A DNA stretch of 64,000 nt from Gammaproteobacteria bacterium (GTDB taxonomy: Bacteria > Pseudomonadota > Gammaproteobacteria > Steroidobacterales > UBA11654). The translations under genes and the position numbers were made by a program. Under the pieces are notes generated by a model. That model ran no database searches and was not told where the DNA came from. It saw nothing but the letters and a program-made list of their open reading frames with translations. The stretch lies in the NCBI GenBank assembly GCA_012965065.1, contig DTSX01000111.1, forward strand, positions 634 to 64,633, written 5' to 3'. Within the stretch, counting starts at the first letter, position 1. The number at the start of each line of letters is the position of its first letter. Shown here piece after piece: positions 1,728 through 47,767 of the stretch.

Positions 1728-1804
1728 GCCGGAATAGCTCAATTTGGTAGAGCAACCGCCTTGTAAGCGGTAGGTTGGGGGTTCAATTCCCTCTTCCGGC
1801 ACCA
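1728..1804 (+). tRNA. thrU: tRNA-Thr (anticodon UGU)
   Basis: Hand-folded cloverleaf: acceptor GCCGGAA/TTCCGGC, anticodon stem ACCGC/GCGGT, loop CTTGTAA, T-loop TTCAATT, encoded CCA. Confidence 0.9.
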
Positions 1805-1879
1805 CCGTTGTGCATCAAAAATTATTTATTTTTGTTGACACCTAAAGTAGTTAATCAGAAAATAGTGGGTTATGTCCGC

Positions 1880-1964
1880 GGAGGGGTACCCAAGCGGTCA
1901 ACGGGGGCAGACTGTAAATCTGCTGGCTTAGCCTTCGTAGGTTCGAATCCTACCCCCTCCACCA
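1880..1964 (+). tRNA. tyrU: tRNA-Tyr (anticodon GUA), long variable arm
   Basis: Acceptor GGAGGGG/CCCCTCC, anticodon loop containing GTA (GCAGACTGTAAATCTGC), long extra arm, T-loop GGTTCGAATCC, encoded CCA. 85 nt. Confidence 0.9.
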
Positions 1965-2008
1965 ATAGTAATAGTAATTACAAGGTGGAAAAAGGCTAAC
2001 AGAAAACA

Positions 2009-2036
2009 TTGACGATGAGAAAATATGTTGTATATT
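2009..2036 (+). promoter_or_regulatory. Candidate sigma70 promoter inside the tRNA cluster (TTGACG-16 nt-TATATT)
   Basis: TTGACG at 2009-2014, a 16-nt spacer, and TATATT at 2031-2036, about 38 nt upstream of tRNA-Gly. Based on hexamer match only, in AT-rich DNA. Confidence 0.35.
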
Positions 2037-2074
2037 GCGAATAAAAATAACGAGTTGGGGCACATCGTTCTTGT

Positions 2075-2148
<74 letters not shown>

Positions 2149-2169
2149 TTCTATCAAGGAAGTGCATCT

Positions 2170-2242
<73 letters not shown>

Positions 2243-2300
2243 GAGATTATAGATAACATAAGGATCAATATAATTTAATTTAATAGGGAGTTTAAAAGTT

Positions 2301-3491
2301 ATGGCTAAAGAGAAGTTTGAACGAAATAAAATGCACATCAATGTTGGAACCATCGGTCACGTAGATCATGGTAAAACCACGTTGACAGCTGCTTTGACTA
2401 AAGTAAGTGCTGCCAAGTATGGTGGTGATGTTTCTTCATTTGACGATATAGATAATGCTCCTGAAGAAAAGGAAAGAGGCATAACTATCGCAACAGCTCA
2501 TGTTGAGTATGAAAGTGATACTAGACACTACGCGCACGTTGATTGTCCGGGACATGCCGATTACGTTAAAAATATGATAACCGGTGCTGCTCAAATGGAC
2601 GGAGCGATTTTGGTTGTATCCGCTGCTGATGGCCCGATGCCTCAAACTAGAGAGCATATTCTCCTAGCTAGAAATGTCGGTGTTCCCAATATTGTTGTTT
2701 ACCTTAATAAAGCAGACCAAGTAGACGATGAAGAGCTTGTTGAGCTTGTTGAGATGGAATTGAGAGAATTGCTATCAGAGTACAATTTTCCCGGGGATGA
2801 TGTCCCTATCATAACGGGAAGCGCCCTTAAGGCTTTGGAAGGAGATACCGGCGACTTAGGCAGCGTAAGTATTGAGAAACTTGTCGCAACAATGGATGAA
2901 TATTTTCCAGAACCTGAAAGAGCAATTGATGGTGATTATTTAATGCCCATTGAAGATGTATTTTCCATTTCAGGAAGAGGTACGGTGGTTACTGGTCGGA
3001 TAGAAAGGGGAATCGTCAAAGTTAATGATAAGGTTGCAATTATTGGCATCAAAGACACTCAGGAATCGGTATGTACTGGCGTTGAAATGTTCCGAAAATT
3101 ACTTGACCAAGGTCAAGCTGGCGATAATGTTGGGGTATTGCTTCGGGGCACCAAACGAGAAGAAGTTGAGCGAGGACAAGTGCTCGCAAAACCCGGTAGC
3201 ATAACACCCCACACAAAGTTTGAAGCTGATGTTTATGCACTATCCAAAGAAGAAGGTGGCAGACACAAGCCTTTCTTTAATGGCTACCGCCCACAATTCT
3301 ATTTTCGCACAACAGACGTAACCGGAGCCGTTACTCTCTCAGAGGGTTCGGAGATGGTGATGCCTGGTGATGATACAAGCCTCACAGTTGAGTTAATTGC
3401 ACCCATAGCAATGGAAGAACAAGTTCGTTTTTCCATTCGTGAGGGTGGTAGAACTGTTGGGTCTGGAGTGGTAACAAAAATTATCGAGTAA
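2301..3491 (+). CDS. tuf: Elongation factor Tu
   Basis: 396 aa with [17 protein letters not shown] and NKAD GTPase motifs. Full-length similarity to EF-Tu by eye. Confidence 0.98.
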
Positions 3492-3500
3492 AGCTACAAA

Positions 3501-3576
3501 AGGCCAGTAGCTCAACTGGTAGAGCGGCGGTCTCCAAAACCGCAGGTTGGGGGTTCGAGTCCCTCCTGGCCTGCCA
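3501..3576 (+). tRNA. trpT: tRNA-Trp (anticodon CCA)
   Basis: Acceptor AGGCCAG/CTGGCCT, anticodon loop CTCCAAA, T-loop GGTTCGAGTCC, encoded CCA. The tuf-secE spacer is a common location for it. Confidence 0.9.
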
Positions 3577-44863: not shown

Positions 44864-45448
44864 ATGGCAAGAATACATTTTATTTATTCGACCATGAATG
44901 CAGGCAAGTCGACCGCATTGCTGCAAACTAATTTTAGCTATCTGGAAAAAGGCATGAACACTGTTTTATTTACTTCAGAACAAGACAACCGATATGGAAA
45001 TTCAGAAATTGTTTCAAGAATCGGCTTAAAGAGTAAGGCCGAGACTTTTAAAACCAATGATAATTTGTTTGATCATGTCTCCAAAGCACATAGTGAAAAT
45101 GCCATAGACTGTGTATTGATTGATGAAGCACAGTTTTTAACAAAAGGCCAAGTGTATCAATTGGGTCGAATTGTTGATGAGCTTGATGTTACTGTTTTGG
45201 CTTATGGAATCCGGACAGATTTTCGTGGTGAATTGTTTGAAGGCAGCCGTTATTTATTAGCTTGGGCAGACCATTTAAGTGAAATTAGAACTGTTTGTCA
45301 TTGTGGACGAAAAGCAACGATGATCGTGCGTGTTGACGATAAAGGAGAGGTTGTTAGAGAAGGAGAACAAGTGGAGATAGGTGGCAATGAGAGATATTTA
45401 TCTTTGTGTCGACTCCATTTTTATCAAGGCATTACAACAAGAACCTAA
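44864..45448 (+). CDS. tdk: Thymidine kinase
   Basis: 194 aa that aligns by eye with E. coli Tdk (YSTMNAGKSTALLQ, IDEAQFL, YGIRTDFRGELFEGSRYLLAWAD, CHCGRKAT...GGNERYLSLCRLH). Confidence 0.95.
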   Translation: MARIHFIYSTMNAGKSTALLQTNFSYLEKGMNTVLFTSEQDNRYGNSEIVSRIGLKSKAETFKTNDNLFDHVSKAHSENAIDCVLIDEAQFLTKGQVYQLGRIVDELDVTVLAYGIRTDFRGELFEGSRYLLAWADHLSEIRTVCHCGRKATMIVRVDDKGEVVREGEQVEIGGNERYLSLCRLHFYQGITTRT

Positions 45449-46698
45449 TAAATTATCCCTACCACCAGCCCTGTAAAGCAAGAGGCGAGTGTGGCGGCAA
45501 CCAACGCTTTACCACTGACAGCAATCAAATCATCCTTTCTCTGAGGTACCATGGTGCCCATTCCACTTAGCAGAATACCCACACTGGACAAGTTGGCAAA
45601 ACCACACAGGGCATAGAGCATGATTATTCTACTTCGCTCTGAAAATTCACTGGCATCTATCGCTGCTAAATTTACGTATGCAACAAACTCATTAAGAATG
45701 GTTTTCACACCTAATAAGGAACCACCTAATTGTGCTTCTGCCCACGGTATACCCATGCACCAAGCAATCGGAGAGAAAATCCAGCCGGCAATCCTTTCTA
45801 GAGAAAGAGCCTCTCCAGCAACTACTGGCAGTGTTCCAAGACCATAATTTACCAGAGTTACAAGCGATATCAGTACCAATAAGAGTGCTGCGATGCTCAA
45901 AGTTATTTGCAATCCATCTTGGGTCCCCCGCGTCAACGCATCCATTGTGCTTCTGTACAACTGAGATTTCTCAATTGCACTTTGATCTTCTGTCTTTTGA
46001 TCACTAGGCATCATAATATTGGCGTACATGATTGCAGCTGGTACAGAGATGATTGAAGCGGTTAAAAAGTGACCAATAAGTGCGGTTCCGTAAAGGTCAG
46101 CTAGCATGGTGGTATAGACAACCATCACACCTCCTGAAATTGTTGACATTCCAACTGTCATGAGCACAAGCAATTCATGTTTTGTCATTTGTCCGAGATA
46201 CGGTCTGATCAACAATGGCGCCTCCACTTGACCAAAAATTATGTTTGCAGTTGCACTTAAACCGACCGGCCCACCTACGTTAAGCGGTTTTTTGAACAGC
46301 AGAGAAATAAATTTGATAATTATCGGAAGTATTCTCCAGTGCCAGAAAATTGCAGCGATAGCTGACACAACAATAATCAACATTAACCCAGAAAATATAA
46401 ATATATTGGCGCTGGCAGGGTTGGTCACCTCAAAGGGTTTTGGTGTACCATCGGCAAGGTAACCAAAAACAAATCCAGTGCCTTGATCTGTGGCAGCCTT
46501 TAAGGCTAAAACTCCCTGGGATATACTTTCAAAAAAAGCAGTGATGAACGGTACTTTAATAAGCAGAATTGCAAGCACAAACTGGAGCAATATCGCATTG
46601 AACAAATACTTAGGATTGATTTTTTTTGCATTATTGCTAAATACTGCCCCTATCAGCAGTAAAAGTGATGCGCCTATTATAATTTGCAGGTAATACAT
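45445..46698 (-). CDS. nupC: Concentrative nucleoside transporter (CNT/NupC family)
   Basis: 417-aa multi-TM protein with GTGFVFGYL and a C-terminal CGFANLSSVGILLSG block, matching the NupC pattern. Its stop overlaps the tdk stop. Confidence 0.85.
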   Translation of the reverse strand: MYYLQIIIGASLLLLIGAVFSNNAKKINPKYLFNAILLQFVLAILLIKVPFITAFFESISQGVLALKAATDQGTGFVFGYLADGTPKPFEVTNPASANIFIFSGLMLIIVVSAIAAIFWHWRILPIIIKFISLLFKKPLNVGGPVGLSATANIIFGQVEAPLLIRPYLGQMTKHELLVLMTVGMSTISGGVMVVYTTMLADLYGTALIGHFLTASIISVPAAIMYANIMMPSDQKTEDQSAIEKSQLYRSTMDALTRGTQDGLQITLSIAALLLVLISLVTLVNYGLGTLPVVAGEALSLERIAGWIFSPIAWCMGIPWAEAQLGGSLLGVKTILNEFVAYVNLAAIDASEFSERSRIIMLYALCGFANLSSVGILLSGMGTMVPQRKDDLIAVSGKALVAATLASCFTGLVVGIIY

Positions 46699-46710
46699 GT
46701 AGATACCATT

Positions 46711-47640
46711 CTACAAAAGTTTTATTTCATATAAACGTTGTTGAAGAAAATCATCAGACAAAATACTTTCTGTGTAAAGATTGGGGTTTTCTTCATCAAT
46801 ACAGGATGCCAAGGTTTCAATGACCCAATCCGGATTAGGATGTAGGAAAAAAGGTATTGAATATCGGGAAGTATTTTTAATCTCATCAGAATCGGAAGTA
46901 ACTCTGTGAATTGCAGAAGGTAATTGATTGTTTGTGAACCGTTCCAACATATCACCAACGTTGCAGAGGATGGTTTCTTGTCCAGTTTCAGCTGGGATCC
47001 ATTTGTTGTTTTTAAGTATTTCTAAGCCGGGTTTGTGACCACCTATCAGTAGGGTTATTAAATTGATGTCACCGTGAGGCCCAGAGCGATCACCCAATTC
47101 TTTCGCAATTATGGGTGGGTAATGAATGGCACGTAATACACTGTTCCCTTGATCAATAAATCCATCAAAATAATGTGAATCAAGGCTCAAATGGATGCTT
47201 ATTGCTTGCATCAATTGTTTTCCAAATCGATCAAATTCTCGAAACAACCGCTGAATTTTAGTTTTAAATTCTGGCATTTCAGAAACAAAGCAATTATCGA
47301 ACATAAATTGTTTGTACGGATGTTGTTCCGGCAGATCCCTTCCCATTTGCCAAAATTCTTTTAAATCTGCATGTTCACCATCCTTTGGGGTTTCAATTTT
47401 GTAGGGTGTGTAGCCTCTTGCTCCACCAATATCTTTATCAAAATACTTCATTTTTAATGCTGTTGGCTGCCCAAAAAATTCTTTGAAGAGGGCAATTGAA
47501 TCGTCAACTAAATCTTTGGTTATGGGGTGATTGGTAACTCCGCAAAAGCCGATGGATTTAAGACTGTTGCCAAACAAATGAGCAAATTTTTCTGGATCCT
47601 TATCCCAAAGATCGAAGTTGATTTCTCTGATCGAATCCAC
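46711..47640 (-). CDS. 2-oxoglutarate/Fe(II)-dependent oxygenase (IPNS-like family), substrate unknown
   Basis: 309 aa with the facial triad H189-x-D191...H245 (GPHGDIN...SAIHRV) and the 2OG-binding R259-x-S261 (SRYSIPFF). No signal peptide. Ends 12 nt upstream of the transporter gene. Confidence 0.8.
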   Translation of the reverse strand: MDSIREINFDLWDKDPEKFAHLFGNSLKSIGFCGVTNHPITKDLVDDSIALFKEFFGQPTALKMKYFDKDIGGARGYTPYKIETPKDGEHADLKEFWQMGRDLPEQHPYKQFMFDNCFVSEMPEFKTKIQRLFREFDRFGKQLMQAISIHLSLDSHYFDGFIDQGNSVLRAIHYPPIIAKELGDRSGPHGDINLITLLIGGHKPGLEILKNNKWIPAETGQETILCNVGDMLERFTNNQLPSAIHRVTSDSDEIKNTSRYSIPFFLHPNPDWVIETLASCIDEENPNLYTESILSDDFLQQRLYEIKLL

Positions 47641-47676
47641 TATGACTCAGACTGTAGTTTGGTTGGTTATCTGAGA

Positions 47677-47690
47677 GAAAATATTTTCTG
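47677..47690. promoter_or_regulatory. Perfect 14-bp palindrome AGAAAATATTTTCT in a divergent promoter region
   Basis: Self-complementary on inspection. Lies between the oxygenase start (47640) and the cysS start (47768). Confidence 0.25.
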
Positions 47691-47767
47691 TTTTCACTGA
47701 ACGAACCTCAGTATCTTCTTGCAACATTAGGTATTATAACTTTGGAAAGAGGATTTAAACTATTTTA

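Follow-up and report, generated by a model that had tools for sequence, protein, structure and literature searches.

Classical bacterial salvage loci (E. coli nupC, tdk, udk and the deo genes; psuK-psuG-psuT) combine a concentrative nucleoside transporter (CNT) with nucleoside kinases. In fungi, thymine 7-hydroxylase (T7H, a thymine dioxygenase of Neurospora and Rhodotorula; PDB 5C3O-5C3S) acts in pyrimidine salvage (PMC4787775), and PMC4787775 and PMC2655668 refer to a pyrimidine deoxyribonucleoside 2'-hydroxylase (EC 1.14.11.3) that uses 2-oxoglutarate (2OG) and Fe(II) to convert thymidine or deoxyuridine in one step to the ribonucleoside in nucleoside salvage. The 2OG oxygenases FJS and PHYHD1 demethylate free 2'-O-methyl nucleosides, not nucleotides or RNA, according to PMC12709175. 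Here we examine a locus in which an oxidative enzyme stands beside a transporter and a kinase: a 64,000-nucleotide stretch of a gammaproteobacterial genome (contig DTSX01000111.1, positions 634 to 64,633; hereafter the window) carries the thymidine kinase gene tdk, a NupC-like CNT gene and a gene for a 2OG/Fe(II) oxygenase resembling isopenicillin N synthase (IPNS). We propose, with a probability of roughly 0.55, that together the three genes make up a module for nucleoside uptake and trapping in which the oxygenase converts an imported nucleoside.

The oxygenase and the transporter are co-oriented, and tdk converges on them from the opposite strand (Table 1). A terminator scan of the short spacer between the two genes found no terminator-like site, which indicates an operon junction, and they are almost certainly co-transcribed. 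An earlier, sequence-only reading of this stretch had placed the transporter 12 nt downstream of the oxygenase and had described overlapping stop codons between tdk and the transporter; both details are confirmed, with 2 nt of the stop codons shared. Its further claims, that oxygenase and transporter are very probably co-transcribed and that transporter and tdk make a salvage pair, hold given the classification of the genes and the recurrent linkage described below.

For the survey of gene neighborhoods we scanned one genome per species, confirmed 597 of the first 600 matching stretches, so that there are at least 597 loci, and examined the best 80; open reading frames (ORFs) were called mechanically, including those in high-GC loci, and clustered, and partners were located by tblastn. 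In 54 of the 80 loci, all assigned to Lysobacterales by their record titles, glmM (phosphoglucosamine mutase) lies upstream of the oxygenase and tpiA, secG and nuoAB lie downstream, these genes being recognized from translations rather than by profile search. We regard this arrangement as inherited housekeeping synteny, which makes it uninformative on function. Among the 26 loci with no glmM detected upstream, a CNT gene adjoins the oxygenase in 12 and tdk follows it directly in three more, bringing the total to 15 of 26.

The linkage takes at least five gene orders. The oxygenase precedes the CNT gene, with tdk convergent, in the window, in a metagenome-assembled genome (MAG) of Woeseiaceae (L001 in our numbering of loci), in L004 (SAR86), in L081-L083 and in the SAR86 contigs considered below, while in L056 (Steroidobacteraceae) oxygenase, CNT and tdk genes run in one direction and are followed by a TonB-dependent receptor gene. 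In L005, L006 and L014, tdk comes directly after the oxygenase, with gaps of 6-22 nt. The co-oriented order udk, CNT, oxygenase is found in L026 (Rheinheimera), L039 (Alishewanella), L043 (Chromatiaceae), L060 (Alteromonadaceae) and L061, and CNT followed by oxygenase in L022 and L049 (Pseudomonadales) and L072 (a Polyangiaceae MAG). Across all groups, tdk adjoins the oxygenase or the CNT gene in L001, L004-L006, L014, L056, L081-L085 and L088-L092. The CNTs of the last two gene orders share only 30-38% identity with the window CNT, and those of the udk-linked and Pseudomonadales loci pass the NCBIfam model of the nupC subfamily (TIGR00804; 486 and 464 bits, cut-off 442), which the window CNT misses at 305 bits; thus, two CNT lineages have been recruited, the window CNT representing a divergent lineage within the family.

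In an approximate neighbor-joining tree, the linked loci divide into three or more distinct subclades, between which the glmM-linked clade is nested. Because bacterial genomes hold one or two CNT genes, chance adjacency of a CNT to a given gene is estimated at well under 1% of genomes, and against this expectation the repeated and rearranged linkage is not attributable to chance. The association that the sequence-only reading took from a single locus is found again in Woeseiaceae-like bacteria, SAR86, Steroidobacteraceae, Alteromonadales/Chromatiales, Pseudomonadales and a Polyangiaceae MAG. The neighbors of unlinked loci (Obg, DnaE, ABC1, ZIP, Tad, an alpha/beta hydrolase and HAD) gave no functional hint. 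Genes seen near linked loci for a histidine kinase, GGDEF/EAL, MCP, RimK-like, GNAT, cytochrome c, SulP, LysR and BirA proteins were considered as partners and set aside because they are not recurrent.

Twelve further metagenome contigs, whose homologues come from different 70%-identity clusters, show the same association: the CNT gene lies immediately downstream of the oxygenase in all 12 (in L087, only its N-terminus precedes the contig end), and tdk is also present in 10. Nine of the contigs are ordered as in the SAR86 loci L003 and L004, with lolA, serS, a TonB-dependent receptor gene, an oppositely oriented PfkB kinase gene, and then the oxygenase and CNT genes, which overlap by 1-4 nt in most cases; tdk and matE come next in eight of the nine. 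Since these SAR86 contigs share a common ancestry, we counted them as one arrangement. In the ninth, L086, the place of tdk downstream of the CNT gene is taken by the gene for a giant Calx-beta repeat protein (>3265 aa) that runs off the locus.

Every conserved partner of the oxygenase is a nucleoside kinase or a transporter, namely tdk, udk, the PfkB kinase, the CNT and the TonB-dependent receptor. The partner tdk was confirmed as an equivalog, and udk (uridine kinase) by two models above cut-off (NF004018 and TIGR00235). The PfkB kinase of the SAR86 type (~298 aa), encoded divergently from the oxygenase, passes no NCBIfam equivalog, and all 17 of its listed PDB matches at E <= 1e-8 are adenosine kinases; it is probably a nucleoside kinase of undefined specificity. 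The TonB-dependent receptor (~1050 aa, with Plug, beta-barrel and N-terminal CarboxypepD_reg domains) adjoins the module in L003, L004, L084-L086, L088-L092, L026, L039, L043, L060 and L056, with 29-33% full-length identity between the SAR86, Alteromonadales/Chromatiales and L056 groups, and has no copy in the window. No hydrolase, phosphorylase, deaminase or decarboxylase recurs among the profile-scanned neighbors, which comprise the Pfam-annotated genes of the 12 metagenome contigs and selected ORFs of the genome loci, and the absence of such partners fits a one-step conversion.

Two further kinds of neighbor were seen. Ahead of nupC and the oxygenase in L022 (Pseudomonadales) is a gene for a 247-aa protein of PF13557, presumably a family of outer-membrane proteins, and L049 has an ORF of 253 aa in the same position; a gene of this type may provide an alternative outer-membrane entry route for the module. 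In L081, L082 and L083, which hold relatives of 62-64% identity, a stand-alone hisI (phosphoribosyl-AMP cyclohydrolase) ends 1-3 nt before the oxygenase. We rejected hisI as a module member, as it passes the hisI equivalog NF000768 and neither the window nor L001 nor any other group has it; we read it as a probable housekeeping gene on a shared transcript.

In the window itself, tdk matches PF00265 (E 5.7e-55) and the NCBIfam thymidine-kinase equivalog NF003300 (280.8 bits, cut-off 195). The transporter carries the Nucleos_tra2_N, Gate and Nucleos_tra2_C domains (PF01773, PF07670 and PF07662, at E 6.3e-17, 3.5e-11 and 1.7e-65, respectively), and its best PDB match is vcCNT (3TIJ, E 1.4e-66). 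In the alignment with 3TIJ it keeps GQVE (HP1 GQxE), NEF (HP2) and FANLSS (TM7 FANxSS), which we take to be nucleoside-site segments of the vcCNT structure.

The oxygenase scores above the gathering thresholds of PF14226 (68.8 bits versus 27.3) and PF03171 (66.8 bits versus 23), the only two families found at E <= 0.001 in the Pfam scan, in which PF05721 (PhyH) gave no match; no NCBIfam model matched. HIA93337.1, a protein from a marine gammaproteobacterial MAG, has exactly this sequence, and the closest named genome is the Woeseiaceae MAG L001, with 90% oxygenase identity and the gene order of the window. Among PDB entries the oxygenase matches 3OOX best (CC_0200 of Caulobacter crescentus, E 1e-83), and a profile built from 20 homologues scores 3OOX at 370 bits, Neurospora T7H at 154 bits (E 6.5e-44), and both an ancestral ethylene-forming enzyme (9OVH) and the uncharacterized SO_2589 (3ON7) at 144 bits. 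The AlphaFold (AF2) model (pLDDT 89.1, pTM 0.89) predicts a double-stranded beta-helix fold; with this model, Foldseek places 3OOX at a TM-score of 0.91 and all T7H chains at E ~1e-27 to 3e-29 and TM ~0.84, followed by 9OVH (E 6e-25, TM 0.82) and plant and fungal DOXC enzymes (~1e-22). Judged by these comparisons, the oxygenase belongs to a tight uncharacterized family that includes 3OOX, and T7H is the nearest characterized relative both by sequence profile and by fold. The enzyme therefore does not sit in a clade with an unrelated known substrate, an outcome that would have spoken against the hypothesis of the sequence-only reading, in which the enzyme hydroxylates or demethylates an imported nucleoside or base.

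The catalytic set that the sequence-only reading had named (H189, D191, H245 and R259-x-S261) is intact. The 20 homologues share H189, D191, H245 and R259 without exception and S261 at >90%; across 94 family members, drawn from Gamma- and Alphaproteobacteria, one Bacteroidota genome and one Myxococcota genome, the cofactor residues R170, Y174, H189, D191, H245, V247, R259 and S261 are all invariant. The five catalytic residues align with T7H H214, D216, H271, R286 and S288, and 2OG/Fe(II)-dependent catalysis is predicted for the enzyme. The substrate side of the pocket is different. In T7H, Y217, N87 and N294 contact the base, F292 stacks on it, and R190 is the fifth base-binding residue (PMC4787775). 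Mapped onto the 94 sequences, Y217 becomes an invariant I192, N87 becomes A74, N294 becomes an invariant H267, and E122 becomes H or Q at position 98, while R190, Y194 and the stacking F292 are kept as R170, Y174 and F265. With three of five base-contacting residues changed, the oxygenase is not a T7H orthologue. The equivalents of F292 and R190 also occur in the ethylene-forming-enzyme relative and hence are not diagnostic for T7H. Thus, the family is T7H-like in fold and ancestry with a strictly conserved pocket of its own.

Conservation across the 94 sequences is high (69 of 309 positions at >=97%), and one position alone separates transporter-linked from unlinked members, which together suggest a single function across the family. 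Plasmid and phage collections hold only distant matches (~28% identity, on Shinella megaplasmids, and one unannotated phage contig), which were uninformative. Among 150 representative homologues there was no informative domain fusion; a HepT-like N-terminal extension on one homologue was discounted as probably a gene-call artefact.

In the mechanism we propose, the CNT would carry nucleosides over the inner membrane and tdk would trap thymidine and deoxyuridine as monophosphates. The oxygenase, encoded on the transporter's transcript and predicted to use Fe(II), 2-oxoglutarate and O2, would be the only chemistry step in the module, turning, in a single step upstream of or parallel to the kinases, an imported nucleoside that these would not accept into one that they would. 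Given the linkage, the substrate is likely to be a nucleoside or a base, and the action of T7H on a pyrimidine counts for this assignment. As to the reaction itself, our leading candidate, possible rather than probable, is a 2'-hydroxylation that would turn deoxyribonucleosides (dU and dC, perhaps also dA and dT) into ribonucleosides. Non-thymidine nucleosides derived from DNA would then enter the ribonucleotide pool via uridine kinase or the adenosine-kinase-like enzyme, and thymidine would be taken up via tdk.

Several lines of evidence lead us to favor 2'-hydroxylation over demethylation of modified nucleosides. Base preference varies among the partner kinases (thymidine/deoxyuridine, uridine/cytidine and adenosine-like), so that sugar-directed chemistry fits better than chemistry on one base. 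Furthermore, tdk is the partner met most often, and proteobacteria usually have no other deoxynucleoside kinase, which favors a deoxynucleoside substrate. The 2'-hydroxylase reaction is the one that best reconciles tdk, udk and the adenosine-kinase-like enzyme as partners. Among the weaker PDB relatives of the oxygenase is AdaV, which we take to be a 2OG halogenase attacking C2' of a deoxynucleotide, so there is precedent in the superfamily for activation of the C2'-H bond. The oxygenase probably acts on an imported nucleoside, in a reaction that has yet to be described in bacteria.

Alternatively, the oxygenase may clean up modified nucleosides, either by oxidative demethylation (of N- or 2'-O-methyl groups, with release of formaldehyde) or by desaturation of dihydrouridine or dihydrothymidine, to yield canonical nucleosides for udk, tdk and the adenosine-kinase-like enzyme. 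Such chemistry is also one-step, needs no partner enzyme and fits the kinase and transporter neighbors; O-demethylases, for example thebaine 6-O-demethylase (5o7y), are among the PDB relatives, and PMC12709175 gives a bacterial (FJS) and a human (PHYHD1) precedent for demethylation of free 2'-O-methyl nucleosides. However, the precedent comes from PF05721, whereas the window oxygenase matches only PF14226 and PF03171; moreover, 2'-O-methyl substrates are ribonucleosides, which would leave the tight oxygenase-tdk pairs unexplained, and no formaldehyde-detoxification gene is linked to the oxygenase. We consider this explanation unlikely. Very unlikely, in our view, is a T7H-like oxidation of the 5-methyl group, in which thymine, thymidine or 5-methyluridine would be taken stepwise to the carboxylate and then decarboxylated to uracil or uridine, as in fungal thymidine salvage. 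T7H is indeed the closest characterized relative by profile and fold, with R170, Y174 and F265 conserved, and tdk and udk both handle pyrimidines, but the replacement of Y217, N87 and N294 and the presence of R170 and F265 equivalents in the ethylene-forming-enzyme relative as well detract from the comparison, and the annotated neighbors, in a search of neighborhoods rather than whole genomes, include no gene for iso-orotate decarboxylase or an amidohydrolase.

The linkage might also exist without a shared substrate, the oxygenase acting on a non-nucleoside small molecule (such as an amino-acid or guanidino compound, by analogy with the ethylene-forming-enzyme relatives) or a macromolecule and lying beside the transporter for regulatory or historical reasons. 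Most of the sampled genomes, those of Lysobacterales, have the oxygenase beside glmM and tpiA with no nucleoside gene, the ethylene-forming-enzyme ancestor scores nearly as high as T7H, and the TonB-dependent receptor hints at something other than plain nucleosides. Yet the pairing occurs in at least five gene orders, draws on two CNT lineages and three kinds of nucleoside kinase, and extends over several orders and two phyla, a pattern very unlikely to arise without selection. The spacing (a 12-nt gap in the window, 1-4 nt of overlap in SAR86) resembles that of translationally coupled genes, and we consider this explanation distinctly improbable.

The module and its 2'-hydroxylation step must in turn be set against a number of unfavorable points. 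The survey covers the best 80 of at least 597 genome loci, and nucleoside neighbors are missing from the 54 glmM-linked loci and from seven loci of other taxa. The preference for T7H over the ethylene-forming-enzyme ancestor is small (154 versus 144 bits, TM 0.84 versus 0.82). Plain nucleosides should not require a TonB-dependent receptor, and a larger or unusual compound could be the true substrate. The fungal 2'-hydroxylase pathway runs without tdk, which is part of the module here, and because the fungal enzyme has no known sequence, a comparison by homology is impossible.

The coordinates of the locus and of the other features mentioned are collected in Table 1. The flanking genes are of the housekeeping type, with corC, lnt, leuS and lptE on one side and cysS, sufE, holA, rsfS and rlmH on the other, as named from the ORF list and annotated relatives. 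Because tdk starts 4 nt after lptE, it is probably the last gene of the leuS-lptE transcription unit. The convergent tdk and CNT ORFs overlap by 4 nt in the window; this overlap is conserved at 4 nt in most SAR86 contigs (among L084-L085 and L088-L092), is 8 nt in L089 and is 0 nt in L081-L083. With such an arrangement there is no space for terminators, and each transcript must run into the 3' end of the other.

The region between the oxygenase and the divergent cysS presumably holds the promoter of the oxygenase-CNT operon and its 5' leader. It includes a TATAAT hexamer and is 94% identical to its counterpart in the Woeseiaceae MAG L001, more than would be expected from the 90% identity of the oxygenase proteins. 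A short ACTGA...TCAGT hairpin also lies within it. In this region no site passed a promoter consensus scan and an inverted-repeat search returned nothing above background, and an Rfam scan of the whole window found no riboswitch or leader, only five tRNAs distant from the locus. These tRNA genes are followed by a long same-strand gene run that reads as the tuf-secE-nusG-rplKAJL-rpoBC-rpsLG-fusA-S10 region, with names inferred from ORF sizes.

Table 1. Positions of the genes and other features discussed, in the window and in related loci.
Feature	Sequence	Position	Strand	Basis or remark
tdk, thymidine kinase, 194 aa	window	44864..45448	+	ORF list; PF00265, NF003300
tdk stop codon, TAA	window	45446-45448	+	
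CNT-family (NupC-like) concentrative nucleoside transporter, 417 aa	window	45445..46698	-	PF01773, PF07670, PF07662
transporter stop codon, TAG	window	45445-45447	-	
12-nt spacer, oxygenase stop to transporter ATG	window	46699..46710	-	sequence; operon-like junction
IPNS-like 2OG/Fe(II) oxygenase, cytoplasmic, 309 aa, GTG start	window	46711..47640	-	PF14226 + PF03171
127-nt intergenic region between oxygenase and divergent cysS	window	47641..47767	-	presumed promoter and 5' leader, inferred
five tRNA genes	window	1728-3573		Rfam
same-strand gene run	window	~2300-32000		ORF sizes
TonB-dependent receptor (example)	L084	3862-7014		Plug, beta-barrel, CarboxypepD_reg
PfkB kinase (and counterparts)	L084	7057-7953		adenosine-kinase PDB matches
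Calx-beta repeat protein	L086	8478-12963		in place of tdk
PF13557 protein, 247 aa	L022	3852-4595		ahead of nupC and oxygenase
ORF, 253 aa	L049	3795-4556		position as in L022
hisI	L081	7543-7998		NF000768
hisI	L082	403-858		NF000768
hisI	L083	7545-8000		NF000768

Our findings concern a large and abundant family. The 90%-identity cluster of the window oxygenase has 570 members, and at 50% identity the profile recovers 1022 clusters (E <= 1e-30), a figure that includes related IPNS-like enzymes as well. The family is represented in SAR86, which is among the commonest groups of surface-ocean heterotrophs, as well as in Xanthomonadales and Caulobacter, and a structure (3OOX) has been out since 2010 with no function attached to it. 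The tie to nucleoside import gives the family a short and concrete list of candidate substrates, and an oxygen-dependent step could be added to bacterial nucleoside salvage, with a bearing on the recycling of dissolved DNA and RNA by marine bacteria and on how labelled-thymidine uptake data are read. If 2'-hydroxylation is correct, the family would supply a gene for EC 1.14.11.3, an activity left without one since the 1970s, and the route would serve abundant aerobes, including SAR86, Woeseiaceae, Alteromonadales, Xanthomonadales and Caulobacter. The family would then be the first sequence-defined, bacterial deoxyribonucleoside 2'-hydroxylase and, together with the TonB-dependent receptor, the CNT and ribonucleoside kinases, would constitute a new route from DNA deoxynucleosides to ribonucleotides, an extension that we regard as doubtful at present.

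Among known systems, T7H resembles the oxygenase in domain composition (PF14226 and PF03171) and has identical metal and 2OG ligands, yet the two share only ~27% identity and the base-contact residues are replaced. Unlike T7H, the oxygenase is bacterial and operon-linked to a nucleoside transporter, with no iso-orotate decarboxylase among its annotated neighbors, and whereas T7H acts on the free base, the oxygenase probably acts on a nucleoside. For the fungal 2'-hydroxylase we found no gene assignment in the literature; to our knowledge none has been made, and the enzyme is defined by activity alone. FJS and PHYHD1, which are PF05721 enzymes and thus of a family absent from the window oxygenase, share the physiological logic of our proposal in that free nucleosides are returned to the canonical pool, and for FJS the available part of PMC12709175 describes an insert of ~1200 bp and reports no transporter or kinase operon. 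The closest entry, 3OOX ("putative 2OG-Fe(II) oxygenase family protein"), is of the same family, with 43-44% identity and all conserved pocket residues in common, and is a structural-genomics entry with no assigned function. Classical salvage loci have no oxygenase, their conversions being phosphorolysis, deamination or glycosidase reactions. Full-text literature searches returned no paper on the oxygenase family, on 3OOX/CC_0200 or on linkage between an oxygenase and a CNT. 2OG oxygenases are already known in nucleoside and base salvage, as the fungal T7H, the 2'-hydroxylase and the PhyH-family 2'-O-demethylases (2025), from which the present family, with no characterized member, differs in sequence. 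Our full-text searches gave no parallel for its operon-level tie to a CNT, nucleoside kinases and a TonB-dependent receptor.

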